In this document: one piece after another, positions 4,394-25,530 of the stretch
How positions within the stretch are numbered: position 1 is the stretch's first letter
How the letters are laid out: each line of letters opens with the position of its first letter
Assembly (NCBI GenBank): GCA_017645985.1
Contig: JAGCNK010000207.1
Location: forward strand, 1 to 40,887
DNA length: 40,887 bases
Source: Bacteroidales bacterium
GTDB lineage: Bacteria; Bacteroidota; Bacteroidia; Bacteroidales; UBA3824
Reading direction: 5' to 3'
Position numbers and translations under genes: made by a program
Notes under the pieces: model-generated
What the model was told of the DNA's origin: nothing
Seen by the model: only the letters and a program-made list of their open reading frames with translations
Databases searched by the model: none

Positions 4394-5137
4394 TTATCTG
4401 CAAAAAAATTGCCCTAGCTTGCGTAAGTTCTTGAATATCAATGTTACTATTCCGCCTATTTTGTTGGTGCGGGCGGCACGGAGATCTTCGCGCATTTTTT
4501 GGCAGATGTTTCTGAACGAACGGTTGCTTATGCCCCCTGTACGCATCTTAACAGCGGTTATGGGGCAGTACGTTAGCTTGAAACCTGGTTTTGATACAAA
4601 GCGCATCATTAGGTCGTAGTCGGCTGCTATTCGGTACGATGTGTCGAACACGCCGTAAGATTCGTATGCAGTTTTCTTGGCAAAGAATGTCGGGTGCGGC
4701 GGCATCCATCCGTATTTCAACCGTTTTGGCTTGAACTCGCCCGAATGCCAGTAGCGAACCACTTTGTCCACATTCTCTTTGGCTACATATTCAAGGTCGG
4801 CGTATGCTGCGTCGGAGTTTTCTTGCTCTATTGCCGATACCATCTGGCTCAGTACGTTGTTTGACGCAAAAATGTCGTCGGCGTGCAAGAATGCTATTAT
4901 GTCGCCAGTGGCCAAGGATATGCCCTTGTTGGCTGCGTAGTACATGCCTTGGTCGGGTTCTGATTGCAGGATGTCGGGATTGAACTGCTTTATTATATAT
5001 AAGGTGTTGTCGGTGCTGGCTCCGTCGATAACGATATGCTCCTTGTTGGGATAGTCTTGCGTCTGAAACGACCGCATCGCATCGGCAATAGTCGCCTCGT
5101 TGTTTTTGCAGAGCGTAATTACCGAAATCTTAAGCAT
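4394..5137 (-). CDS. Family 2 glycosyltransferase
   Basis: ISVITLCKNNEATIADAMRSFQTQDYPNKEHIVIDGASTDNT and LHADD are typical GT2 (GT-A) N-terminal motifs. Confidence 0.8.
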   Translation of the reverse strand: MLKISVITLCKNNEATIADAMRSFQTQDYPNKEHIVIDGASTDNTLYIIKQFNPDILQSEPDQGMYYAANKGISLATGDIIAFLHADDIFASNNVLSQMVSAIEQENSDAAYADLEYVAKENVDKVVRYWHSGEFKPKRLKYGWMPPHPTFFAKKTAYESYGVFDTSYRIAADYDLMMRFVSKPGFKLTYCPITAVKMRTGGISNRSFRNICQKMREDLRAARTNKIGGIVTLIFKNLRKLGQFFCR

Positions 5138-5684
5138 TTATCTCCCTCTCCTTTATTTTGGTTGCTGGATTGCCCTTATATATTCCGTAAGGCTGCATTT
5201 CGGAGGACGCTGTGCTGCCTGCCGAAAGTACCGAATGGCTGCGGCATACAGTGCCGGCTGTAACTACCGATTTGGCGCAAATCCATACGCCGTCTTCAAT
5301 TGTTATCGGTGCTGTTATTAGGTAAAAATCAGTACTTTTGGTGTTGTGACTTCCAGTTTCGATTAAAGCTCCTTGCGATATGCAGCAGTTGCTTCCGATG
5401 GTCACCTGCGCCAAATTGTCGATCCATACTTCTTCGCCAATCCACGAATTGTCGCCTATGGCCAGCAGCCACGGATATTTGATATTTACTCGTGGTTTTA
5501 TCACCACTCCTCTGCCAATTTTGGCTCCGAATATCTTCAGTATCAAGCGCTTGATGCCGTTGAACGGGAAAAACGGCGACATAAGGAGCGTGTAGTTTAC
5601 AATGTACCACAACGCCCTTGTTATCACGTTGCGCCCGGGCGTGTAGCCGTGCTTGGAGTATGAGGACAAATCGGTTGTTTTCAA
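5130..5684 (-). CDS. Hexapeptide-repeat O-acetyltransferase (WcaF-like)
   Basis: The N-terminus TPGRNVITRALWYIVNYTLLMSPFFPFNGIKRLILKIFGAKIGRGVVI and the left-handed beta-helix repeats resemble colanic-acid WcaF-type acetyltransferases. Confidence 0.75.
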   Translation of the reverse strand: MKTTDLSSYSKHGYTPGRNVITRALWYIVNYTLLMSPFFPFNGIKRLILKIFGAKIGRGVVIKPRVNIKYPWLLAIGDNSWIGEEVWIDNLAQVTIGSNCCISQGALIETGSHNTKSTDFYLITAPITIEDGVWICAKSVVTAGTVCRSHSVLSAGSTASSEMQPYGIYKGNPATKIKEREINA

Positions 5685-7588: not shown

Positions 7589-9100
7589 ATGAAAAAACAC
7601 CTTCTTAGCGTAATGTCTGTTGCTGCGATGATGACGTTGTCGGCTTGCTTCGGCGGTGGCGACAATGGTGGCAGCAATGGTTCAGACAATGGATCTGACA
7701 ATGGTGGCGGACAAAACATGTCGTCTGCCGAAATCATCAAACGTGCCGACGGTTCAGTAATTCGTCTGGGCGGTTACAAGGCTTCCGCTCCCGACATCGA
7801 CGCTCCTATGTACAGCGCATCGCTCAAGGCCGACAATCTTCCCTCTAAGGTTGACTTGCGCCAATACCTCACTCCCGTAGAAAACCAAGGTCAGCTCGGT
7901 TCGTGTACTGCCAACGCCACAGCTGGTGCCTACGAGTATCTTATGTGGTGGCACAAACAAAGTCAGTTTGATTTGAGCCGTCTGTTTCTCTATTACAACA
8001 CCCGCGTTATCGAAAATACTGTAAACGTGGATAATGGAGCTATGATTTTTGATGTAATCAAAGCTTTGCACGACAATGGCGTTTGTAGCGAAAACTCTTG
8101 GCCCTACGTTATTCAGAAATTCAAACAGCGTCCGCCTGAGAACTGTTATGCTGAGGCTAAAGAACACAATATCAGCAAGTATGAACGCATAGCGTTGGAT
8201 CTCGACACTTGGAAAAGCGTTCTTGCAGAGGGCTATCCTATTATTTTTGGTGTTCAGATATTCAATTCGTTTCAGAATCCCCGCAACGGCTTCATCTCTA
8301 TGCCAAGATCCAATGATCAACCTTTAGGCGGTCACGCTATGTGCTGCGTAGGCTATTCTGATCCCGACCGCGTGTTTATCGTGCGCAACTCGTGGGGTCA
8401 CCAGTGGGGCGACAAAGGATACTGCTACATTCCCTACGACTATATGATGAACCGCAAATACAACGACGGCGACTCTTGGGTAATCTACAGCATGGACGGC
8501 GAAATCAATACCGACCAAATCGAGGAAGAGGCTTGGAACGACGACGAGGAGTCGATGTTTGTGGATATGGAAAACGAGTTTACCGATATGTCGGACGAGA
8601 ACTGGGACGCTATGTGTGAAGAACTTGGCGACTATGACATCGTGTTCCGCCTTGGTGCGCTCTACAATTATGCTTGTTGGGGTGACGAGGAGGCTGATCC
8701 CGCAGAAACTAAGGCTGCACTTGAGAAACTCAAAAAAATTCTCGTGATGTTCGGTCTCGACTACTCGCCCAAAAAGGTGCTCAAACACTGCGAGAACCTT
8801 TGGAGCAGCAAGGATAATTTCCTTGAAGAGACGGTAGAGATTCTCTCAAAATATCTGTCGGATGGTGCTCGTGCCACTATCGCAGCCGATATGCTCGAAA
8901 TTTGCGAAGCCGATGGCGATGCCGCAGAAAACGAACGCGTGTTGATTGCAGACCTTGTGACCGAATGGCTCAACGATGACCTCCTTGAGGAATACTACTC
9001 TGAGTATTTCGACGAGGAAGACGAAGACGACTACGACTATTACGAAGACGAAGACGACTATTACTATGATGAAGACTTCGACTATGGTGATGAATTGTAA
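7589..9100 (+). CDS. Lipoprotein papain-family (C1) cysteine peptidase fused to a TerB-like domain and a D/E/Y-rich tail
   Basis: Lipobox MTLSAC plus a G/N/S/D linker. The C1 triad contexts are QGQLGSCTANATAGAYEY, GGHAMCCVGY and VRNSWGHQWGDKGYCYIPYDY. The C-terminal helices carry WGDEEADPAETKAALEKLKKIL and ICEADGDAAENERVLIADLV (TerB-like ADG-x5-E pattern). The tail is EEYYSEYFDEEDEDDYDYYEDEDDYYYDEDFDYGDEL. Confidence 0.8.
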   Translation: MKKHLLSVMSVAAMMTLSACFGGGDNGGSNGSDNGSDNGGGQNMSSAEIIKRADGSVIRLGGYKASAPDIDAPMYSASLKADNLPSKVDLRQYLTPVENQGQLGSCTANATAGAYEYLMWWHKQSQFDLSRLFLYYNTRVIENTVNVDNGAMIFDVIKALHDNGVCSENSWPYVIQKFKQRPPENCYAEAKEHNISKYERIALDLDTWKSVLAEGYPIIFGVQIFNSFQNPRNGFISMPRSNDQPLGGHAMCCVGYSDPDRVFIVRNSWGHQWGDKGYCYIPYDYMMNRKYNDGDSWVIYSMDGEINTDQIEEEAWNDDEESMFVDMENEFTDMSDENWDAMCEELGDYDIVFRLGALYNYACWGDEEADPAETKAALEKLKKILVMFGLDYSPKKVLKHCENLWSSKDNFLEETVEILSKYLSDGARATIAADMLEICEADGDAAENERVLIADLVTEWLNDDLLEEYYSEYFDEEDEDDYDYYEDEDDYYYDEDFDYGDEL

Positions 9101-13925: not shown

Positions 13926-14480
13926 TCATTTAAGGTTTTTCAAAAAGTCAATTATCTCGTTTGTTACCATTATGTGGTCTACTTCGGTGGCTTTGATGGC
14001 AGCCGTGGTCATTGTCTTTACCTGGCATTCGTCGGGCGACTGCACTATCACCGTGCCTCCGGCGTCTTTGATGGCCTTGAGCCCGAGGGCGCCGTCCTTG
14101 TTGGCTCCTGAGAGCAGTATTCCCACCGAGTCGGTTTTGAAGGTTTTGGCTATCGAAAAGAATGTTACGTCGATCGACGGCCGCGAATGGTTTACAGGTT
14201 CTTCTGTTGATAGCGAAAACTGGTTGTTGGCGTCAACGTACATGTGATAGTTGGCTGGAGCGAGGTAAGCTATGCCCGGCATCACGGTGTCTTTGTCGAA
14301 AGGCTCGCAAATCGGTATGTTTGATTTAAGCGATAGTGCCTCCACAAATCCGCCCCTGACGTTTTTGAGACGGTGCAGGCATAGGAAAATAGTGTGAGGG
14401 TAGTTGCGCGGTATGCTCGATAGCAACGCCGTCACCGTTTGAAAGCTTCCTGCCGATCCTCCTATTACAATGTTGCCCAT
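13926..14480 (-). CDS. cheB: CheB-type protein-glutamate methylesterase, catalytic domain only (no receiver domain)
   Basis: 184 aa starting directly with MGNIVIGGSAGS. The Ser, His and Asp contexts are GGSAGS, FLCLHR and LSGANKDGALG, plus NHSRPSIDV. Confidence 0.8.
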   Translation of the reverse strand: MGNIVIGGSAGSFQTVTALLSSIPRNYPHTIFLCLHRLKNVRGGFVEALSLKSNIPICEPFDKDTVMPGIAYLAPANYHMYVDANNQFSLSTEEPVNHSRPSIDVTFFSIAKTFKTDSVGILLSGANKDGALGLKAIKDAGGTVIVQSPDECQVKTMTTAAIKATEVDHIMVTNEIIDFLKNLK

Positions 14481-14487
14481 AACCTTT

Positions 14488-15321
14488 TTACTTTTGAACT
14501 TTTACAAAAATGTTTTCGTTTTTCGACACCGGGATAAATGTTCCACGGTAGTCGCATCCGCTGAGATTCTCGCGTATGCCTATTATGAAGTATCCGCCGC
14601 TGACGATGGTCTTGGCAAGGTTGTCAACCACCATTTTCTTGGTCTGGACGTTCATGTATAGCATACGGTCGCGAAACAGCACAAGGTTGAATCCGTTGTC
14701 GGGCGGAGGAGTGCTGATGATGTCGCCTTTGAGGAATATGACGTTGTCGAGCAGCTGCGACGAAAAATAGTCGTATTTGTCTTCTCGGGTGAGATAGTGA
14801 GTCAGTTCGGCGTCCGGGTCTATTTTTTTGAAGTTTGCCGAGCTGATTTCTAATTTCTTCTGGTCGATGAATCCGCTTTTGGCGTCGTTGAGTATCTTGT
14901 GGATGGGCGATGTGGCGTATACAGTGCACCGGTTGAGGATGCGTTTGCGGTGGAGAATCACCAGCAGCGAGTAGAGCTCGTCGTCGCCGCATATCTGGGG
15001 AATCCATATTTTGCAGAGCGTCTCGTTTTTGAGTTTCTCCACAATGTTGTCTTCCAGAAACTTCCACATAGAGTAGTCGCGAAACATCTCGGTTGTAGGC
15101 ACGAATATTTCCGACACGAACAGGTCGGCAAAGTAGTTGTCGGCCATAAGCTTGTTTACGAGGCGGTCGGGAGTCTGCACGCCGTGCATATACATCGACC
15201 TTGTCATACGGTGCATAAGGATGTCTTGCGAGTAGTACGAGAAGTCTACGTCGCGGAGCGTGCGCACTGTCGAAATGATTTTTCTGAAATCCTCGTGTGG
15301 TATGTTAAGAAATTCGTCCAT
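14488..15321 (-). CDS. CheR-like protein with a degenerate SAM-binding motif
   Basis: It has the CheR fold landmarks (TTEMFRD and the N-terminal helical domain). However, motif I reads IWIPQICGDDELYS instead of W-x-AGCSTGEE-x-YS, ATD is replaced by ATSP, and the post-motif reads VLFRDRMLYMN. Confidence 0.7.
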   Translation of the reverse strand: MDEFLNIPHEDFRKIISTVRTLRDVDFSYYSQDILMHRMTRSMYMHGVQTPDRLVNKLMADNYFADLFVSEIFVPTTEMFRDYSMWKFLEDNIVEKLKNETLCKIWIPQICGDDELYSLLVILHRKRILNRCTVYATSPIHKILNDAKSGFIDQKKLEISSANFKKIDPDAELTHYLTREDKYDYFSSQLLDNVIFLKGDIISTPPPDNGFNLVLFRDRMLYMNVQTKKMVVDNLAKTIVSGGYFIIGIRENLSGCDYRGTFIPVSKNENIFVKVQK

Positions 15322-15324
15322 AGC

Positions 15325-16185
15325 CTAAAACACTTTTTTGTTGTAAATCAGACCTTTCTTTTCGTACTTTACGCTCGTTGGGCCGATGATGCTCTCATGT
15401 ATTCCCAGCACGAGCGATCCGTATGTGTCGAGGTAATTCCAAAAATCAATAAACAGCTTGTTTTGCAGTGTGTTGTTGAAGTAAATCAGTACATTGCGGC
15501 ACAAAATGATGTCGTACGACACGTTGAAAGGGTTGGGGTCGGTAACGAGGTCGTGCTTTTTGAAAATTGCCTTGTCGAGAAATTCGCGCTTTATTTTAAA
15601 GGTGTCTTTCACCTTGTTGATGTCGAAATATTTCTCGTATGTTACCACAAGATGCTCGTCGAAGTTGTAAGGATTTTCGCACAGCACCTTGTTGAAGTTG
15701 TCGAGATATTCAGACACCGACCTGTAGCTGTATACGCCCGACTGGGCGGTTTTGATTACGTCGGTGTTGAGGTCGGTGGCGTAGATGTTGCAACGGTGAA
15801 GCATGTTCATCTCGTTGAGCAGTATTATCATAGAGTACACCTCCTGACCTGTGGAGCATCCTGCGTGCCAGATGTTGATTTCGCGCTTGCTTGCAAGGCG
15901 TGGCAGTATGCGGTATTTGATTGCGTGCCATACCTGAGGGTCGCGAAACAGCTCGGTGGTGTTTACAGTGATGTCTCTGACCACCTGCTCCAAAAACAGA
16001 CGGTCTTCTTTAACTTTGGCTATCAGCTTCGACAGGTCAAGTTTGTAGTCCATCATCACCTTTTCCACCCGCCTTAGAAACGATTTTTCGGAGTAGTTGG
16101 CAAAATCGTATCCAGCGTAGTCGCGCAAGGTTCTAATAAGTGTCAGTATGTTAGGGTCTTCAAACATTTTTCTATAAGTATACAT
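15325..16185 (-). CDS. cheR: CheR-type protein-glutamate O-methyltransferase
   Basis: TTELFRD, INIWHAGCSTGQEVYS, IYATDLN and IILCRNVLIYF motifs. I prefer the ATG at 16185 (MYTYRKMFEDPN) to the TTG at 16206. Confidence 0.85.
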   Translation of the reverse strand: MYTYRKMFEDPNILTLIRTLRDYAGYDFANYSEKSFLRRVEKVMMDYKLDLSKLIAKVKEDRLFLEQVVRDITVNTTELFRDPQVWHAIKYRILPRLASKREINIWHAGCSTGQEVYSMIILLNEMNMLHRCNIYATDLNTDVIKTAQSGVYSYRSVSEYLDNFNKVLCENPYNFDEHLVVTYEKYFDINKVKDTFKIKREFLDKAIFKKHDLVTDPNPFNVSYDIILCRNVLIYFNNTLQNKLFIDFWNYLDTYGSLVLGIHESIIGPTSVKYEKKGLIYNKKVF

Positions 16186-16220
16186 GCCCCCCTGGGGCTT
16201 TTGCAAAAAAAATTATAGTT

Positions 16221-16287: not shown

Positions 16288-17325
16288 TTAATAGACGTCG
16301 CGTTCGTAGCCGAGCATGGGCGGAACCATCTGGGTTCTGTTGCCGCTTACGCCGATGGCTTTTAGAGCGGGCAGGTTTTGCAGCAACTCGGGAAATTGAG
16401 CGAAAAGATTGTTGCAGAGGTTGAGGTCGTAAAGGTTCTCAAATTTTACCACTTCGTTGGGCAGACGTGTGAGCCTGTTGTTGCTCAGGTCAAGGAACAC
16501 AAGGCTTGTGAGCTTGGTGATGTCGGTGGGCACGGTTGTGAGGCTGTTGTGGCTGAGTATCAGACGCTGAAGGTTGTACAATTGCGATATTCTTGTGGGA
16601 ACCGACATCAAGCCGCATCCCGAGAGCGACAATCTGGTGAGTGTGGTGATGTTGCATATCTGCGTCATGTCGCGTATCTTGTTGTTGTCTAAGTATAACA
16701 CTTTGAGCGACTTGAAGTTGGCTACCGTGGTGGGCAGCGATGCTATTGTGTTGCCGGCAAGCATCAGCACCTCAAGGTCTTTGAGGTTGGTGAGTGCGCC
16801 CTGGAATGCTGTTATCTTGTTGAACGAGAGGTCTAACTCTTTGAGCGACTTCATATTAGAAATCGTTGCGGGGATGACTGTAATCAGGTTGTTTGACAAT
16901 GTGGCAGATTCGAGCTGCGTGCAGTTGGTTAGCTGCGCCATTTCGCTTATGCGGTTGTTGGCTAAGGAGATGCGTTTCAATTTTTTGAGTCCTGCCACCT
17001 CGCCAGGTATGCGTGCTATGGCGTTCTGGTCGGCAAAGATGAACCTCAGTTCGGTAAGCTGAAACAACTGAGGCGGCAATGTGGTGAGCGTGTTGCCCTG
17101 TATGTATATGGCTTTGAGGTTTTTGAGCTGGGCTATGTCGGCGGGCAGCGACGATATGCCCTGGTTGCTCAGGTCGAGCACCTCGGCTTTGTCGGCGTTA
17201 GAGAGCGCCTCTTCTACCGATGTGTATGCTATCTGTTTGGCAAGCCACTGGTCGTTGTAGTCCTGCGCGTATGTGGCGGCAACGGCTGTGAGCGTTATTG
17301 CGAGCGATAAGATAAGTCTTTTCAT
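16288..17325 (-). CDS. Secreted leucine-rich repeat (LRR) protein
   Basis: Signal peptide MKRLILSLAITLTAVAATYAQ, then about a dozen roughly 23-residue LxxLxLxxNxLxxLP repeats (for example LKELDLSFNKITAFQGALTNLKDLEVLMLAGNTIASLP). Confidence 0.8.
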   Translation of the reverse strand: MKRLILSLAITLTAVAATYAQDYNDQWLAKQIAYTSVEEALSNADKAEVLDLSNQGISSLPADIAQLKNLKAIYIQGNTLTTLPPQLFQLTELRFIFADQNAIARIPGEVAGLKKLKRISLANNRISEMAQLTNCTQLESATLSNNLITVIPATISNMKSLKELDLSFNKITAFQGALTNLKDLEVLMLAGNTIASLPTTVANFKSLKVLYLDNNKIRDMTQICNITTLTRLSLSGCGLMSVPTRISQLYNLQRLILSHNSLTTVPTDITKLTSLVFLDLSNNRLTRLPNEVVKFENLYDLNLCNNLFAQFPELLQNLPALKAIGVSGNRTQMVPPMLGYERDVY

Positions 17326-17326
17326 T

Positions 17327-18109
17327 TTAATTGTCATTTTCTGAATTAAACATATTATTAACAAAACAAATATAATGCCTATATTTTGAGCGGCTGTGCT
17401 TTTTGGCGCAGTCGGAGGCGTTTTTGATTCCTCCGAGATAATAACGTTGAAACCACGGCAAAACGCATAAAATTGCAGTCCAATTGCCGTAATTTTTTGC
17501 CAAATATACTCCGAGCATTGCCAGCGACCCCAGAATCACCTCCGACGACACGCCGTCTATCACACTCAGCGACATATACTGCCCAAGTCCAGGCACTATG
17601 GCGCTTGCCACGCCTGCCACCGCCGGCGACGGTTTCGACTTCTTTTGCCATTTTTTCGACAGTTTCAAAAACTCGTCGCGGCGTTCTTCTGGCAGTGATT
17701 TTAGAAAGCATTCAGTTGATTTGTCGTACTGACCGAGACAGTAGTAGCAGATGCCCAGACGTCGGTTCACTTCGTTTTGGATGCTGGGTTCGGCGGCGGT
17801 GTCTGCTTGCATAAGCGAAGCCACGGCGTTGAAGTATTTTTTTGCTGCGATATAGATATCGGCTTTTGTAATAAGAACTTTACTACGCTCGTCCTGGGTG
17901 GCGGCGTAGAGGTATGCCTGATTGATGAACATCTCGGCAAGACGGAGGTTTTCTGCCTCGGACGATAGCTGTGCGGCGGCTATATAGTTCTGGTTGCTGG
18001 TGTGCAATGTGTCGAACAGTATGGCACGCTGCAACTCTTTGAACTGGTTTTGTGCGCTAACCGTTAGGCTAAAAAAGATTATCGTGCATATAGTCCACAA
18101 TTTGTTCAT
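17327..18109 (-). CDS. Signal peptide plus TPR-like helical region plus C-terminal DUF5683-like membrane segment
   Basis: Signal peptide MNKLWTICTIIFFSLTVSAQ. TPR-like helices such as LGICYYCLGQYDKSTECFLKSL. SAIVPGLGQY is followed by hydrophobic helices. It has the same architecture as the upstream gene. Confidence 0.55.
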   Translation of the reverse strand: MNKLWTICTIIFFSLTVSAQNQFKELQRAILFDTLHTSNQNYIAAAQLSSEAENLRLAEMFINQAYLYAATQDERSKVLITKADIYIAAKKYFNAVASLMQADTAAEPSIQNEVNRRLGICYYCLGQYDKSTECFLKSLPEERRDEFLKLSKKWQKKSKPSPAVAGVASAIVPGLGQYMSLSVIDGVSSEVILGSLAMLGVYLAKNYGNWTAILCVLPWFQRYYLGGIKNASDCAKKHSRSKYRHYICFVNNMFNSENDN

Positions 18110-21964: not shown

Positions 21965-22020
21965 TGCGGACGGATTTGGTTTGATTGCAACCGCTTAAAA
22001 AAAATGCTAAAGCAACGCCG
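21965..22020 (+). promoter_or_regulatory. Candidate SAM-II-like pseudoknot riboswitch in the metK 5' leader
   Basis: The RNA is UGCGGACGGAUUUGGUUUGAUUGCAACCGCUUAAAAAAAAUGCUAAAGCAACGCCG. It forms the hairpin GGUU(21978-81)/AACC(21989-92), or alternatively GCGG/CCGC. Loop UUGC (21985-88) can pair with the downstream GCAA (22012-15). The GAUUU, A-rich linker and AAAGC elements resemble my memory of the SAM-II consensus. The context (a SAM synthetase leader) fits. Confidence 0.35.
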
Positions 22021-22077: not shown

Positions 22078-23358
22078 ATGTCATATTTTTTCACATCAGA
22101 ATCAGTTTCTGAGGGACATCCCGACAAAGTGGCAGATCAGATTTCTGACGCACTTTTGGACGAATTTTTAAAACAGGACTCAGAAAGCAAGGTGGCTTGC
22201 GAAACTTTCGTTACCACCGGTCTTGCCGTTTTGGGTGGCGAGGTAAAAACAGAGGCTTATGTCGACGTGCAGCAGACTGCCCGCGACGTTATCAACCGAA
22301 TCGGCTACACCAAAGGCGAATATATGTTTGACGGCAACAGCTGCGGCGTGATTTCGGCTATCCACGGTCAGAGCCAGGATATCAACCGAGGCGTTGAGCG
22401 CGAAGACCTTGACAATCAAGGCGCTGGCGACCAGGGTATGATGTTCGGCTACGCTGTTAAAGAGTCGCAGAACCTTATGCCTTATAGCATCGAGCTGGCT
22501 CACAAGCTGCTTATCGAACTTGCAGCCATCCGCCGCGAGGGTAAGGAGATGACTTATCTCCGTCCCGACAGCAAGAGCCAGGTAACTATCGAATACGGCG
22601 ACAACAATGTTGCAAAACGTATCGACACTATCGTTATCTCTACTCAGCACGACGAGTTTATTAAGGCCGATACTGCCAAAAAACAGCTCAAGGCCGACAA
22701 GGATATGGTGGCAAAAATCACCGAGGATGTCCGCGACATTCTCATCCCCCGTCTTCTTAAAAAGCTCAGCGCCAAAGAAAAAGCTCTTTTCAAGGGCGAC
22801 TACAAACTGTTGGTTAACCCCACTGGCAAGTTTGTTATCGGCGGACCTCACGGCGATACCGGCCTCACAGGACGCAAGATTATCGTTGACACCTACGGCG
22901 GCAAGGGCGCACACGGCGGCGGAGCTTTCTCGGGCAAAGACCCCTCAAAGGTAGACCGCAGCGCAGCATACGCTACACGCCATATTGCCAAAAACTTAGT
23001 GGCAGCCGGCATTGCCGACGAGTGCTTGGTGCAGGTGGCTTACGCTATCGGCGTGGCTCAGCCCGTGGGCTTGTATGTTAACACTTACGGCACAAGCAAG
23101 GTAAAAATTAGCGACGGCGAAATTGCTGAGAAACTTCTCAAGATTTTCGACCTCCGTCCCGCCGCTATTATCCGCAGATTGAAACTTAAAAACCCAATCT
23201 TCTTGGATACAGCTGCTTACGGACATTTCGGCCGCGAACCTTACTCCAAAAAAGTGGAAGTTATCGAAAACGGCAAAAAGGTGAAAAAAGAGGTTGAGTT
23301 CTTCACTTGGGAAAAACTCGACTATGTGGACACTCTCAAAAAGGAGTTCGCCATTTAA
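22078..23358 (+). CDS. metK: S-adenosylmethionine synthetase
   Basis: [33 protein letters not shown] and [19 protein letters not shown] motifs. 426 aa. Confidence 0.95.
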
Positions 23359-23390
23359 AACTTTTTTAACCTCTTGATACAATATTTGGC

Positions 23391-23431
23391 AAGGAATATG
23401 GTTATATAATTGTAATCATATTCCTTTCTTT
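23391..23431 (+). terminator. Rho-independent terminator after metK
   Basis: 10-bp stem AAGGAATATG (23391-23400) pairs with CATATTCCTT (23417-23426), followed by TCTTT. Confidence 0.7.
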
Positions 23432-23497
23432 AAAAACAAAAAGGAAGTTTTTCCGTATAAAGATTTGGATGATAACAACCACGGTATAAATATCGAT

Positions 23498-23743
23498 ATG
23501 AAAAAGTCAAAATACATAAAATTCGCACTCTGCTTGGCGCTGGGCTGTTTCTTCAGCCTTGGTGTGTTTGCTGAAGATTACAATGGTGTCGGTGACGACC
23601 CAAACAAGGATGTGCCAAAAATTCCGATTCCAATTGATGGTGGAGTGTCTGTTTTGATAGCCGCAGGTGTTGGCTACGGTGTAAAAAAGTACCGTGACTA
23701 TCGTTTAAGTAAGAAGGATATCGAACCTCGTTGTTCTGAATAG
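23498..23743 (+). CDS. 81-aa precursor with an N-terminal signal peptide and a PID-type C-terminal sorting signal
   Basis: The signal peptide is MKKSKYIKFALCLALGCFFSLGVFA. About 20 polar residues follow (EDYNGVGDDPNKDVPKIPIP). Then come IDGG, the hydrophobic stretch VSVLIAAGVGYGV and the basic stretch KKYRDYRLSKK. This is the tripartite layout of PEP-CTERM-class signals. I prefer the ATG at 23498 to the TTG at 23465. Confidence 0.55.
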   Translation: MKKSKYIKFALCLALGCFFSLGVFAEDYNGVGDDPNKDVPKIPIPIDGGVSVLIAAGVGYGVKKYRDYRLSKKDIEPRCSE

Positions 23744-23757
23744 GATAAAACCCTTTT

Positions 23758-24323
23758 ATGTCTTCAAAGTTTTATTGTAGTTGGTCTCCTTTGGGTAAGG
23801 CAGCTTTCAATATTGCTGTTGCGGGCTTGGTAGGTTTTGTTTTCTTCTTCTTCCTAAAAAAAATTACTTCTTCTTCAATCTTTACGAATATGGCGTCTAT
23901 TGCCTTACTGAGCTGATAGCCAATTCGGTAAAGTTTGTCCTTAATTTATTCGGCTTCAAATGCCTGACATTTGGCAAGATTATTTCCAACACCGACGGAG
24001 TGTCGCTTATTTTAGACCGCGGATGCGTTGGACGTAATGTGCTTGTGGTGTTTGCGGCTTTTATCATTGCCACTCCTGCCGAGGTTTGGCGAAAGTTTGC
24101 CTATATTGCCGCCGGACTTGCCGTTATCGTTTTGCTCAATGTGCTGCGTATTTCGTTGCTGATGTATGTGGGCACCTATCACAACGAGTGGTTTCACTTT
24201 GCCCACGAATATCTGTTTAAATACACGCTCTACGCTGGAGTGTTTTTGCTGTGGGTGCTGTGGATGAACAAGTTCAGGTCTTCATCTTCTTTTTCTTCGC
24301 CGCAGGAAAAAGCACATTGTTGA
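23758..24323 (+). pseudogene. Small exosortase-family protein (XrtF-sized), reading frame interrupted at an A8 tract
   Basis: The ATG at 23758 opens MSSKFYCSWSPLGKAAFNIAVAGLVGFVFFFFLKK..., which stops at 23914-23916. The -1 frame is open from 23799 and reads NYFFFNLYEYGVYCLTELIANSVKFVLNLFGFKCLTFGKIISNTDGVSLILDRGCVGRNVLVVF...LLNVLRISLL...FHFAHEYLFKY...WVLWMNKF through to 24323. The conserved Cys, Arg and His spacing and the joined length of about 188 aa fit small exosortases. That frame has no start codon between 23799 and the GTG at 24000. Confidence 0.6.
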
Positions 24324-25530
24324 GTATCAGACGGTAGCCTGGCGAGTTTGGATGCAGGTCGAGGTCGGTGGGAGGATCGCCCACATAGTGCAGATAATCT
24401 TCGGGGTCGTGTCCGCCGTACCAGGTCCAAGTGCCTTTGCCGTATTCGCCGTGTATGTAGCGTGCTTCGTTGGCGGCTTTGTTTTCGCCCATAATCAGAA
24501 CTGAACTTTTCAGCACTTCCTTGCGGTACGATGTGGTCTGTCCCATAAATCCGTCGATAATGTTCTCATGGTTCTGACATAGCATAGTGGGCACAGGATC
24601 CCACTTGGCAGAAAATTCAAACAGTGAGAATATGTCGTTCTCTTTTTGCACGCGCCGTGTGGTGGTGGCGTCTATGTCGCTGTATTCGTACACGTTGGGG
24701 TTGAGCTCAAGACGAAAATCTTTGAATGCGAATGTGGCGCTGTAGTCGAGCTTGGCTTGGCAGTTGGGGTCTATCGGGTCGCCGTCGAACATTGGCTGGC
24801 AGATGTCGGTGTTTTCGGCGGCGAGGGCAATGTCGAAACTGTCGGTGGCACTGCACATTGCAAACATGAATCCGCCGTTTTCTACAAACTGCTTTATGGT
24901 TTTGGCTACTGCGAGTTTAAGCTTCGACACTTTGCTGTAGCCCATCTTCTGAGCCAGCGCGTTGAACTCGATCACCTGGTTTTTATACCACGGAACATTT
25001 TTGTACGATGCGTAGAATTTGCCGAACTGACCAGTGAAATCCTCGTGGTGAACGTGCAGCCAGTCGTATTTCGACAGTTCGCCTGTGAGAATCTCCTCGT
25101 CGTAAACCACCGTGTAGGGTATTTCGGCGTAGGTGAGCACAAGCATCACGGCATCGTCCCACGGCTTGTAGGTCTTGGGGGCGTATACTGCTATTTTGGG
25201 AGCTTTCTCAAGTTTGATATGCTCCATGTTAACATCGTTGCGCGAAATCTGAGCCAGAATGTTGTCGGCTGCGGCGTCGGGGATCTGCTGGAAACTTACG
25301 TTGCGCACCCTGCATATCGTGGCTATCTGGTCGGTGTAGTCGGTGAGAAAACTGCCTCCACGGTAGTTGAGCAGCCATTCTGCCGTTAATCCCGCCTCCA
25401 ATATGGTGTAGGTAACGCCGTATGCTTTGAGATGGTTGGTTTGTGTCTCGTCCATCGGGATGAGGATTTTCATCGCCTGACACTTCGCCACCGAAATCAA
25501 CGCTAACAATATGGCTGCTATCAGTTTCAT
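24274..25530 (-). CDS. Conserved secreted hypothetical protein (possibly a class I glutamine-amidotransferase-like fold)
   Basis: Signal peptide MKLIAAILLALISVAKCQA. The nucleophile-elbow-like GGFMFAMCSATDSF and the C-terminal WYGGHDPEDY are the only suggestive motifs. The start is 6 nt after the dnaB stop. Confidence 0.5.
   Translation of the reverse strand: MKLIAAILLALISVAKCQAMKILIPMDETQTNHLKAYGVTYTILEAGLTAEWLLNYRGGSFLTDYTDQIATICRVRNVSFQQIPDAAADNILAQISRNDVNMEHIKLEKAPKIAVYAPKTYKPWDDAVMLVLTYAEIPYTVVYDEEILTGELSKYDWLHVHHEDFTGQFGKFYASYKNVPWYKNQVIEFNALAQKMGYSKVSKLKLAVAKTIKQFVENGGFMFAMCSATDSFDIALAAENTDICQPMFDGDPIDPNCQAKLDYSATFAFKDFRLELNPNVYEYSDIDATTTRRVQKENDIFSLFEFSAKWDPVPTMLCQNHENIIDGFMGQTTSYRKEVLKSSVLIMGENKAANEARYIHGEYGKGTWTWYGGHDPEDYLHYVGDPPTDLDLHPNSPGYRLILNNVLFPAAKKKKMKT

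Follow-up and report, generated by a model that had tools for sequence, protein, structure and literature searches.

A PID-CTERM mini-protein gene joined to a small exosortase gene in uncultured rumen Bacteroidales: a candidate substrate–sortase cassette

Introduction

The subject of this study is a pair of adjoining genes at positions 23498 to 24323 of contig JAGCNK010000207.1 (Bacteroidales assembly GCA_017645985.1), a stretch of 40,887 nucleotides (nt) that is referred to below, at its full length, as the window. The first gene encodes a protein of 81 amino acids (aa), here called the mini-protein, which ends in a C-terminal sorting signal of the PID-CTERM family, and the second encodes a small membrane protein of the exosortase/archaeosortase superfamily, here called the sortase. 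An earlier reading of the letters alone (the original prediction) proposed that the two make up a cassette of one substrate and one sortase, the processed cargo of which would be about 20 residues long. The profile searches and locus comparisons reported here place both proteins in these families, show that their genes keep together among relatives, and make it somewhat likely that they are a substrate and the enzyme dedicated to it.

Results

The mini-protein belongs to the PID-CTERM family

The two genes lie on the same strand:

23498..23743, forward strand: PID-CTERM mini-protein gene, 81 aa and stop codon TAG (23741-23743)
23758..24323, forward strand: sortase gene, in two frames, with ATG at 23758, 14 nt past the stop of the mini gene

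The 81-aa open reading frame (ORF) from ATG 23498 holds, in this order, MKKSKYIKFALCLALGCFFSLGVFA, EDYNGVGDDPNKDVPKIPI, PIDGG, VSVLIAAGVGYGV and KKYRDYRLSKKDIEPRCSE, and translation from an alternative TTG at 23465 would extend the protein to 92 aa. Its parts are:

23498..23572, forward strand: signal peptide, residues 1-25 (MKKSKYIKFALCLALGCFFSLGVFA), with a hydropathy peak at residues 7-25
23573..23629, forward strand: linker, residues 26-44 (EDYNGVGDDPNKDVPKIPI), 19 residues, acidic and Pro/Gly-rich, the putative cargo
23630..23644, forward strand: motif P45-I-D47-G48-G49, the presumed recognition and cleavage region of the sortase
23645..23683, forward strand: transmembrane stretch V50-V62 (VSVLIAAGVGYGV), 13 residues, from hydropathy and alignment A3
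23684..23740, forward strand: cytoplasmic basic tail, KKYRDYRLSKK and a short polar end, with K63-K-Y-R-D-Y68 invariant and the rest variable

Sequence and hydropathy give the layout expected of a PID-CTERM protein, with an N-terminal signal peptide and, at the C-terminal end, the motif, a transmembrane helix and a basic cluster. This is how the original prediction had drawn the precursor (signal peptide, about 20 polar residues, PIDGG, 13-residue hydrophobic stretch, basic tail), and the second gene does begin where it was placed, 14 nt downstream. The family name given there is borne out by the NCBIfam model NF046080 (PID_CTERM), which residues 45-67 match with 46.9 bits (cutoff 26, E=1.7e-12), and by orthologues that are flagged with Pfam PF28310. 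In the window, which covers about 40 kb of the genome, no further tail of the PID type was found.

Signal peptidase I is predicted from the sequence to cut after VFA25, and near strain variants of the mini-protein have Q at +1 of this site, directly after FA. The same kind of junction, with one of A, S, G, C or T before Q, occurs in 64% of 246 members of the family. The Q at +1 in the mini-proteins fits the Q-rule described for signal peptidase I substrates in Bacteroidetes (PMC5837995, PMC10653852).

The sortase is related to XrtX and XrtF and belongs to neither family

The downstream gene has the following features:

23758..23863, forward strand: 5' part of the sortase, codons 1-35, frame 1 (MSSKFY...FFFFLKK), the same as the N-terminus of the intact protein P0001
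23856-23863, forward strand: A8 homopolymer, the frameshift site; relatives have A9 (CTA AAA AAA AAT = L-K-K-N)
23862..24323, forward strand: 3' part, frame 3, N36-C188 and stop, the catalytic core, with the TIGR04178 match
24024..24026, forward strand: Cys90 codon (DRGCVGR), presumed catalytic nucleophile, aligned with the Cys of XrtX
24147..24149, forward strand: Arg131 codon (NVLRISL), aligned with the Arg of XrtX
24204..24206, forward strand: His150 codon (FAHEYLF), aligned with the His of XrtX

The original prediction of an exosortase-like protein of about 188 aa with the motifs DRGCVGRN, NVLRISL and FHFAHEY is right as to the motifs and the kind of protein, and has to be amended in that the window does not encode it as a single ORF (see below); the profile scores given here are therefore those of the frame-corrected protein of 188 aa. 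In the profile check that had been called for, the sortase passes TIGR04178, the exosortase/archaeosortase signature, with 57.2 bits (cutoff 23), and PF09721 with 33.2 bits (cutoff 25.7), and the uncorrected fragment of 107 aa alone reaches 59.7 bits with TIGR04178.

The best specific model is NF046081 for exosortase X (XrtX), where the sortase scores 86.9 bits, below the cutoff of 170, and its orthologues score 80-94 bits, against 191 bits for the true XrtX of Nafulsella turpanensis. To the latter the sortase is 28% identical, with the Cys, Arg and His residues aligned. TIGR04128 for XrtF is matched with 65.6 bits, below its cutoff of 90, and TIGR04125 for ArtA weakly, with 19.4 bits (cutoff 75). 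Each of the two small families has a companion protein, and neither companion was found: NF046082, the XrtX-associated membrane protein, has no match among the 10 small window ORFs scanned, a tblastn search with the Nafulsella partner gave E>1, and TIGR04127, the exosortase F system-associated protein, has none adjacent to the sortase or among the small window ORFs scanned. Membership of XrtX is rejected on the score and on the missing associated protein, and membership of XrtF on the score and on the missing partner gene. The enzyme is, as first described, XrtF-sized without the XrtF partner next to it; the nearest curated family, however, is XrtX, and it fails both cutoffs. NCBI labels its orthologues only 'archaeosortase/exosortase family protein'. 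On its sequence, the sortase is best placed in the XrtX/XrtF lineage, outside both curated families, as a divergent branch without a name.

Cys90, Arg131 and His150 are invariant among 20 homologues. In an AF2 model of moderate confidence (pLDDT 74), which has five long helices and, ahead of Cys90, a small beta region, the three residues fall within the predicted helices H88-105, H110-141 and H143-178. No solved structure resembles the sortase by sequence, and by fold all matches have E>2.

A homopolymer interrupts the sortase frame in the window

The segment from 23758 to 24323 is 566 nt long, which is not divisible by 3. Frame 1 ends at a stop codon at 23914-23916 after 52 codons, the catalytic core is read in frame 3, and an intact ORF is not found in the window owing to the A8 run at 23856-23863. 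L001, a public contig of 99.5% identity, has A9 at this position and encodes the intact 188-aa protein P0001, which is 99% identical to the two window pieces joined at ...FFFFLKK-NYFFF.... Eleven public runs (X1-X10, X12), which come from several studies, have the extra A in their contigs, a twelfth run (X11) has an in-frame A7+T variant (N36Y), and the sortase frame is intact in a JGI contig (L016). All relatives stay in frame across the tract, having A8 or A9 together with the Leu codon that suits it, except that two lineages have no run at all, reading KQN (L007) and RQN (L010). A programmed frameshift is therefore unlikely as a family trait and is rejected, the frame being kept in all relatives and in all other samples, with or without the run.

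In the genome of the window, either the sortase is not made, or only slippage on A_AAA_AAA allows it to be made, or the loss of the base is an error of the assembly. The heptamer A_AAA_AAA is a perfect -1 slippery site, and runs of A8 or A9 are prone to transcriptional slippage; if A8 is real, some full-length enzyme could therefore still arise.

That the cassette is dead in this strain, A8 being a real one-base deletion which leaves a pseudogene or the OFF state of a slippage-prone tract, is a serious possibility, if one that we doubt. The window has A8 where the 11 public runs have A9, and A9 runs are natural slippage hot spots. The sole other fixed indel in about 34 kb, when the window is compared with four runs, is at 16186 (C6 in the window, C7 in the runs), and the 18 other homopolymers of at least 8 bases have no fixed length difference from those runs, a minority variant being seen only at one of them, the A8 at 21997-22004. 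Fixed indels at homopolymers are thus few, so that the assembly does not appear generally error-prone there, and a general homopolymer error, with 2 fixed indels in about 34 kb, is unsupported. Against a real deletion stands that A8 was not seen in any second data set, that both fixed indels are one-base homopolymer contractions in the window, which is also a signature of consensus error, and that the remainder of the gene, 99% identical to intact P0001, has no further damage. As to the OFF state, AAA-AAA encodes the Lys pair in every KKN lineage, compared with 36% of the Lys-Lys pairs in window genes, which, as these lineages are not independent, hints only weakly at a tract selected for phase variation; the lineages without the homopolymer (L007, L010) speak against such a switch.

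Two other homopolymers deserve mention in their own right. The intergenic A8 upstream of metK (21995-22004) is one base shorter in a minority variant of three runs, a sign that such tracts vary naturally in length. The C6/C7 run (16186-16192) immediately precedes the likely ATG of a gene for a CheR-like methyltransferase (15325-16185, minus strand).

The two genes keep together among relatives

The sortase subfamily is rare. A search of 5.8 billion proteins gave 24 clusters, and of 185,579 species genomes 7 have a member, all of them uncultured Bacteroidales from the gut of yak, goat, cattle or pig. In each of ten related loci (L001-L010), and also in L015, L016, L017 and L025, a mini gene lies directly upstream of the sortase gene, so that the co-occurrence check proposed at the outset comes out positive at every related locus. 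The upstream ORFs at the clade loci are 62-81 aa long and share the design of the window mini-protein. Seen from the mini gene, an exosortase-family gene adjoins it in every clade locus, as is expected for PID-CTERM, this gene being XrtX-like and below the XrtX cutoff. The small ORF is not a chance reading frame, because it matches PID_CTERM with the E value given above and is conserved beside the same sortase in 10/10 related loci.

In the window and in all close relatives metK is found upstream of the cassette. In L010 and L025, the most distant members, the pair lies between a gene for a Big_5 protein and pdxA; since the pair is kept in this different context, the two genes travel as a unit.

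The sorting signal is invariant and the linker hypervariable

When the amino acid sequences of the clade are compared with those of the window, the identity is 90-99% for metK, 94-96% for a 418-aa orphan gene on the other side of the pair, 90-93% for dnaB and 81-90% for aroB, whereas it is 65-83% for the sortase and 53-74% for the mini-protein. The mini gene and the sortase gene are the fastest-evolving element of the neighbourhood.

The changes in the mini-protein are unevenly placed. In alignment A3 all 20 invariant columns belong to the start Met or to the sorting signal, with the block P-x-D-G-G-V-S-x-L-I-x-A-G-V-x-Y-G-x-K-K-Y-R-D-Y, and P45, D47, G48 and G49, the core of the NF046080 match, are invariant. 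The linker has no conserved column, and its length differs among related mini-proteins. Substitutions and indels are concentrated in the linker even when strains with about 99% identity are compared. To exemplify, in run X5 seven of 13 substitutions fall within 23573-23618, that is, within 46 of 1,001 nt (p=6e-7), and the same segment takes up all of the in-frame insertions of X5-X7 (9 nt) and most of that of X9 (12 nt). All linker indels between strains preserve the frame, from which follows that the downstream signal must stay translated. A diversity-generating retroelement as the source of the variation is rejected, as no template repeat of the linker was found anywhere in the window.

This pattern bears on what the mini-protein is. 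The main rival to a substrate is a stable, uncleaved partner or regulator of the sortase, a pseudo-substrate which would replace the XrtX- or XrtF-associated membrane protein. Such a role would accord with conservation that is strongest in the transmembrane helix and in KKYRDY on the cytoplasmic side while the exposed part varies, with the associated protein not found in the window, the gene of which overlaps the sortase gene at canonical loci, and with the finding in Flavobacterium johnsoniae that deletion of the small partner has the same phenotype as deletion of xrtF (PMC10936215). We regard it as quite unlikely, since P-x-D-G-G, which is invariant, is placed at the outer face of the membrane just as PEP, PGF and other cleaved motifs are, the architecture of the mini-protein passes a curated sorting-domain model, and genomes elsewhere have several mini genes that lie far from any sortase, which suits many substrates better than a stoichiometric subunit. 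Moreover, the mini-protein has no similarity to the NF046082 or TIGR04127 proteins.

A different product would result if the small ORF encoded a precursor from which a signalling or antimicrobial peptide is released, the sortase serving as maturation protease only. The product would be short, the pairing in the operon is one to one, and the rapid variation of the linker between strains is like that of some peptide pheromone and bacteriocin systems. However, the linkers are of low complexity (in the 15 residues before the motif, Pro makes up 18%, Asp 13% and Gly 13% among 253 family members), they have no conserved core and range from 2 to 46 residues in length, and no immunity, transporter or receptor gene is adjacent. 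This makes such a precursor very improbable.

Flanking genes and transcription

The pair is flanked as follows:

22078-23358: metK, upstream of the cassette (TIGR01034, 508 bits)
23388..23429, forward strand: hairpin 3' of the metK stop, followed by a U-rich stretch, likely the intrinsic terminator of metK
24274..24323, both strands: tail-to-tail overlap of 50 nt between the 3' end of the sortase gene and the convergent orphan gene
24274-25530, minus strand: convergent 418-aa orphan gene, with dnaB and accA beyond

The hairpin has a 16-bp stem with a folding energy of -20.6 kcal/mol (z=-4.5), and 0/200 shuffled sequences folded equally well. It is not listed by a consensus terminator scan, which missed it because the stem is GC-poor. 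If, as is likely, the hairpin terminates metK, the cassette must have a transcription start of its own. In metatranscriptome contigs (X16), metK and the region of the 3' overlap are represented and the mini gene is not.

The orphan gene encodes a secreted protein that matches no Pfam or NCBIfam family and no solved structure or PDB relative, and its conservation of 94-96% across the clade is comparable to that of the housekeeping flanks. As a third component of the system it is rejected, since it matches no family or structure and does not adjoin the pair in L010 and L025, and on its sequence it is treated here as a probably unrelated neighbour. The same overlap of 50 nt is present in L002 and L015, and coding on the opposite strand may be the reason why the sortase has a conserved SSSSFS-QEK-HC tail.

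PID-CTERM mini genes elsewhere mostly follow type IX cargo genes

A profile of the sorting domain only (36 positions, without the signal peptide), searched against 1.84 billion cluster representatives at E<=0.001, gave 1,967 matches, the best 150 of which are all 35-125 aa long with a domain that begins near residue 35-45. The full-length profile gave 1,720 matches, with 58-99 aa among the best 120. From the A-Q junction to the motif the median distance is 13 residues, and the commonest tail among 253 members is KK[YIVL]RD. That the mini-protein is almost nothing but targeting information, as the original prediction stressed, is therefore true but not special to this locus: the design is the norm for the PID-CTERM family, already modelled by NCBIfam and Pfam, and ORFs of 60-90 aa of this type are real genes.

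The surroundings of these genes were compared in 80 metagenome loci with a PID-CTERM mini gene (in the range L011-L095), 72 of which have enough upstream DNA. In 56 of the 72, an ORF on the same strand ends within 200 nt upstream of the mini gene, and 48 of these 56 upstream ORFs end in Por_Secre_tail (PF18962), the C-terminal domain of type IX secretion, compared with 10/97 control ORFs, which are the other ORFs of at least 300 aa at the same loci (Fisher p=2e-21). Examples of a mini gene behind a type IX cargo gene are L011:1-4219, L012:456-4216 and L013:7280-10207. Two contigs have two mini genes each, every one behind its own cargo gene (Ga0209278_1000042 with L026 and L028, Ga0070682_100000119 with L024 and L054), and outside the rumen clade a genome can therefore have several such peptides. 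The rumen clade is the exception, with the mini gene after metK and joined to a sortase gene, and with no type IX cargo gene adjacent; among ten large window proteins scanned, none has Por_Secre_tail.

When a sortase gene does occur with a mini gene outside the clade, it may be of different kinds. In L087 (4881-5651) a near-XrtX sortase (165.5 bits) lies directly downstream of the mini gene, L041 (4905-5861) has an XrtY-like sortase (112.9 bits) with a PID-CTERM mini gene, and in L014 (10001-14339) the mini gene and a sortase above the XrtF cutoff (108.7 bits) are 3.6 kb apart, with an XrtF-associated-like neighbour in a polysaccharide locus. In Nafulsella, a canonical XrtX (191 bits) is encoded 1.8 kb from a 72-aa PID-CTERM gene.

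These observations raise the further alternative that PID-CTERM peptides, processed by sortases of the XrtX/XrtF type, serve the display or anchoring of type IX cargo, and that the rumen cassette is a detached, minimal version of such a system. Besides the high frequency of Por_Secre_tail upstream of the mini genes, this would agree with the results in F. johnsoniae, where deletion of xrtF or of its partner gene gives the same class of phenotype as the type IX mutants porU and porZ (PMC10936215), and with the report that the targets of XrtF are 'not yet known' (PMC12188702). We consider it unlikely, though, since the gene upstream in the window and close relatives is metK with its own terminator, no cargo gene is adjacent, 0/10 of the large window proteins scanned have Por_Secre_tail, and a coupling to type IX secretion has no established mechanism. 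The blocked pyroglutamate N-terminus expected from the Q-rule (PMC5837995), furthermore, would speak against the peptide as an amine acceptor.

Other features of the window

At 13926-16206 a CheB-like gene and two genes for CheR-like methyltransferases lie beside the gene of a secreted leucine-rich-repeat protein (16288-17364); in relatives (L015), a GAF-domain gene follows the Che-like cluster. In runs X1-X3 a form of the contig joins 1811 to 9290 via 37 other bases. The roughly 7.5 kb that it skips contain greA and the genes of a WcaF-type polysaccharide acetyltransferase (5130-5684) and a papain-family protease (7589-9100), and the interior is covered by other contigs. Either strains differ by an indel here, or T-rich runs have affected the assembly graph.

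Discussion

A model for the cassette

The mini gene and the sortase gene are, on balance, likely to be a self-contained two-gene operon of uncultured rumen Bacteroidales, and to form a dedicated pair of substrate and sortase which would give a short peptide product and not a surface protein. Cleavage is proposed here by analogy, and export, the cleavage site, the transfer and the acceptor are all parts of the scheme that we infer. For archaeosortase A (ArtA) both cleavage and lipid attachment have been demonstrated experimentally (reviewed in PMC6098224), and this enzyme serves as the working model, because the mechanism is known there and is assumed for exosortases. Apart from the uninterrupted ORF of 188 aa, the original prediction is confirmed as to the sequence, and its interpretation is supported, since those of its own grounds for refutation that the data here can address did not materialise.

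According to the model, the 81-aa precursor would be exported by the Sec pathway and then cut by signal peptidase I after VFA25. The result would be a single-pass peptide with about 20 acidic, Pro/Gly-rich residues in the periplasm, P-I-D-G-G at the outer membrane face and KKYRDY in the cytoplasm. The five-helix sortase would then cut PID-GG by Cys90, together with Arg131 and His150, and bind the short N-terminal piece as a thioester, and this piece would be passed on to an acceptor (a glycan, a lipid or water), while the remnant of transmembrane helix and basic tail would be discarded. The expected product is a short, variable peptide of roughly 13-22 residues, here EDYNGVGDDPNKDVPKIPIPID and its strain variants, possibly with an N-terminal pyroglutamate.

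Several observations weigh against the operon and against the dedicated pair. The sortase gene of the window is frameshifted. The conserved part of the mini-protein is the part that the model would discard, and a product without conserved sequence suits a non-cleaved partner equally well. Outside the clade, where the locus extends for at least 3 kb to either side of the mini gene, a sortase gene is present in only 4/24 cases (L087 and L041 among them), and mini genes that trail type IX cargo genes point to a function beyond the simple substrate model. Finally, no experiments on PID-CTERM proteins or XrtX were found in the literature searched, where PID-CTERM is unmentioned and the matches to XrtX or 'exosortase X' are unrelated or incidental.

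Relation to known sorting systems

The closest known system is that of PID-CTERM and XrtX (NF046080, NF046081, NF046082, PF28310). The mini-protein passes its model and has its typical size and layout, XrtX is the top specific model for the sortase, and the Cys/Arg/His triad aligns. Differences are the sub-cutoff score and the low identity of the sortase, the associated membrane protein that was not found in the window, and the position of the enzyme, which is encoded directly behind the mini gene here and within a polysaccharide/glycosyltransferase locus in Nafulsella. In other words, the locus is a divergent branch of the PID-CTERM/XrtX kind known to database curators, with a different gene arrangement and no partner protein found.

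XrtF (TIGR04128/TIGR04127; Fjoh_1448/1449 of F. johnsoniae) is likewise a small exosortase of Bacteroidota, about 180 aa long and with the same triad, and it is needed for biofilm formation and surface colonisation (PMC10936215, PMC12188702). The window sortase, in contrast, scores under the XrtF cutoff, is not accompanied by the associated membrane protein, and adjoins a candidate target, whereas XrtF is without a published target (PMC12188702).

With the PEP-CTERM/exosortase A system (EpsH, XrtA), the cassette shares the tripartite C-terminal signal of motif, transmembrane helix and basic cluster, the superfamily PF09721 and, presumably, the Cys-based transpeptidase mechanism. XrtA is however a protein of about 500 aa with many large substrates per genome, while the enzyme of the window has 188 aa, its sole visible substrate would have a mature part of about 20 residues, and the motif is P-I-D-G-G in place of P-E-P. 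The PGF-CTERM/archaeosortase A system of Haloferax volcanii has the same superfamily and signal layout, and differs in being archaeal, in having a large S-layer glycoprotein as cargo, and in the weak match of the window sortase to TIGR04125.

Significance

In the cassette, a sortase and a single candidate target are encoded 14 nt apart, and the mature part of about 20 residues is of a size suited to mass spectrometry. Since the target is small and adjoins its presumed enzyme, the cleavage site and the acceptor would be directly testable, in a field where the chemistry of bacterial exosortases is almost unstudied despite their wide occurrence. For annotation, the case illustrates that a single homopolymer base would cause a sortase to be miscalled as two fragments. 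The mini genes behind type IX cargo genes are a possible link between two surface-sorting systems. A wider generalisation, which we offer tentatively and consider unlikely, is that PID-CTERM mini-proteins are the long-missing substrates of the whole group of small Bacteroidota exosortases (XrtF, XrtX, XrtY and the rumen branch), their cargo being no protein but a short, fast-evolving peptide tag for type IX-coupled display. If this were true, the system would be present in the rumen cassette in its minimal, self-contained form, and nowhere could its chemistry be studied more cleanly.

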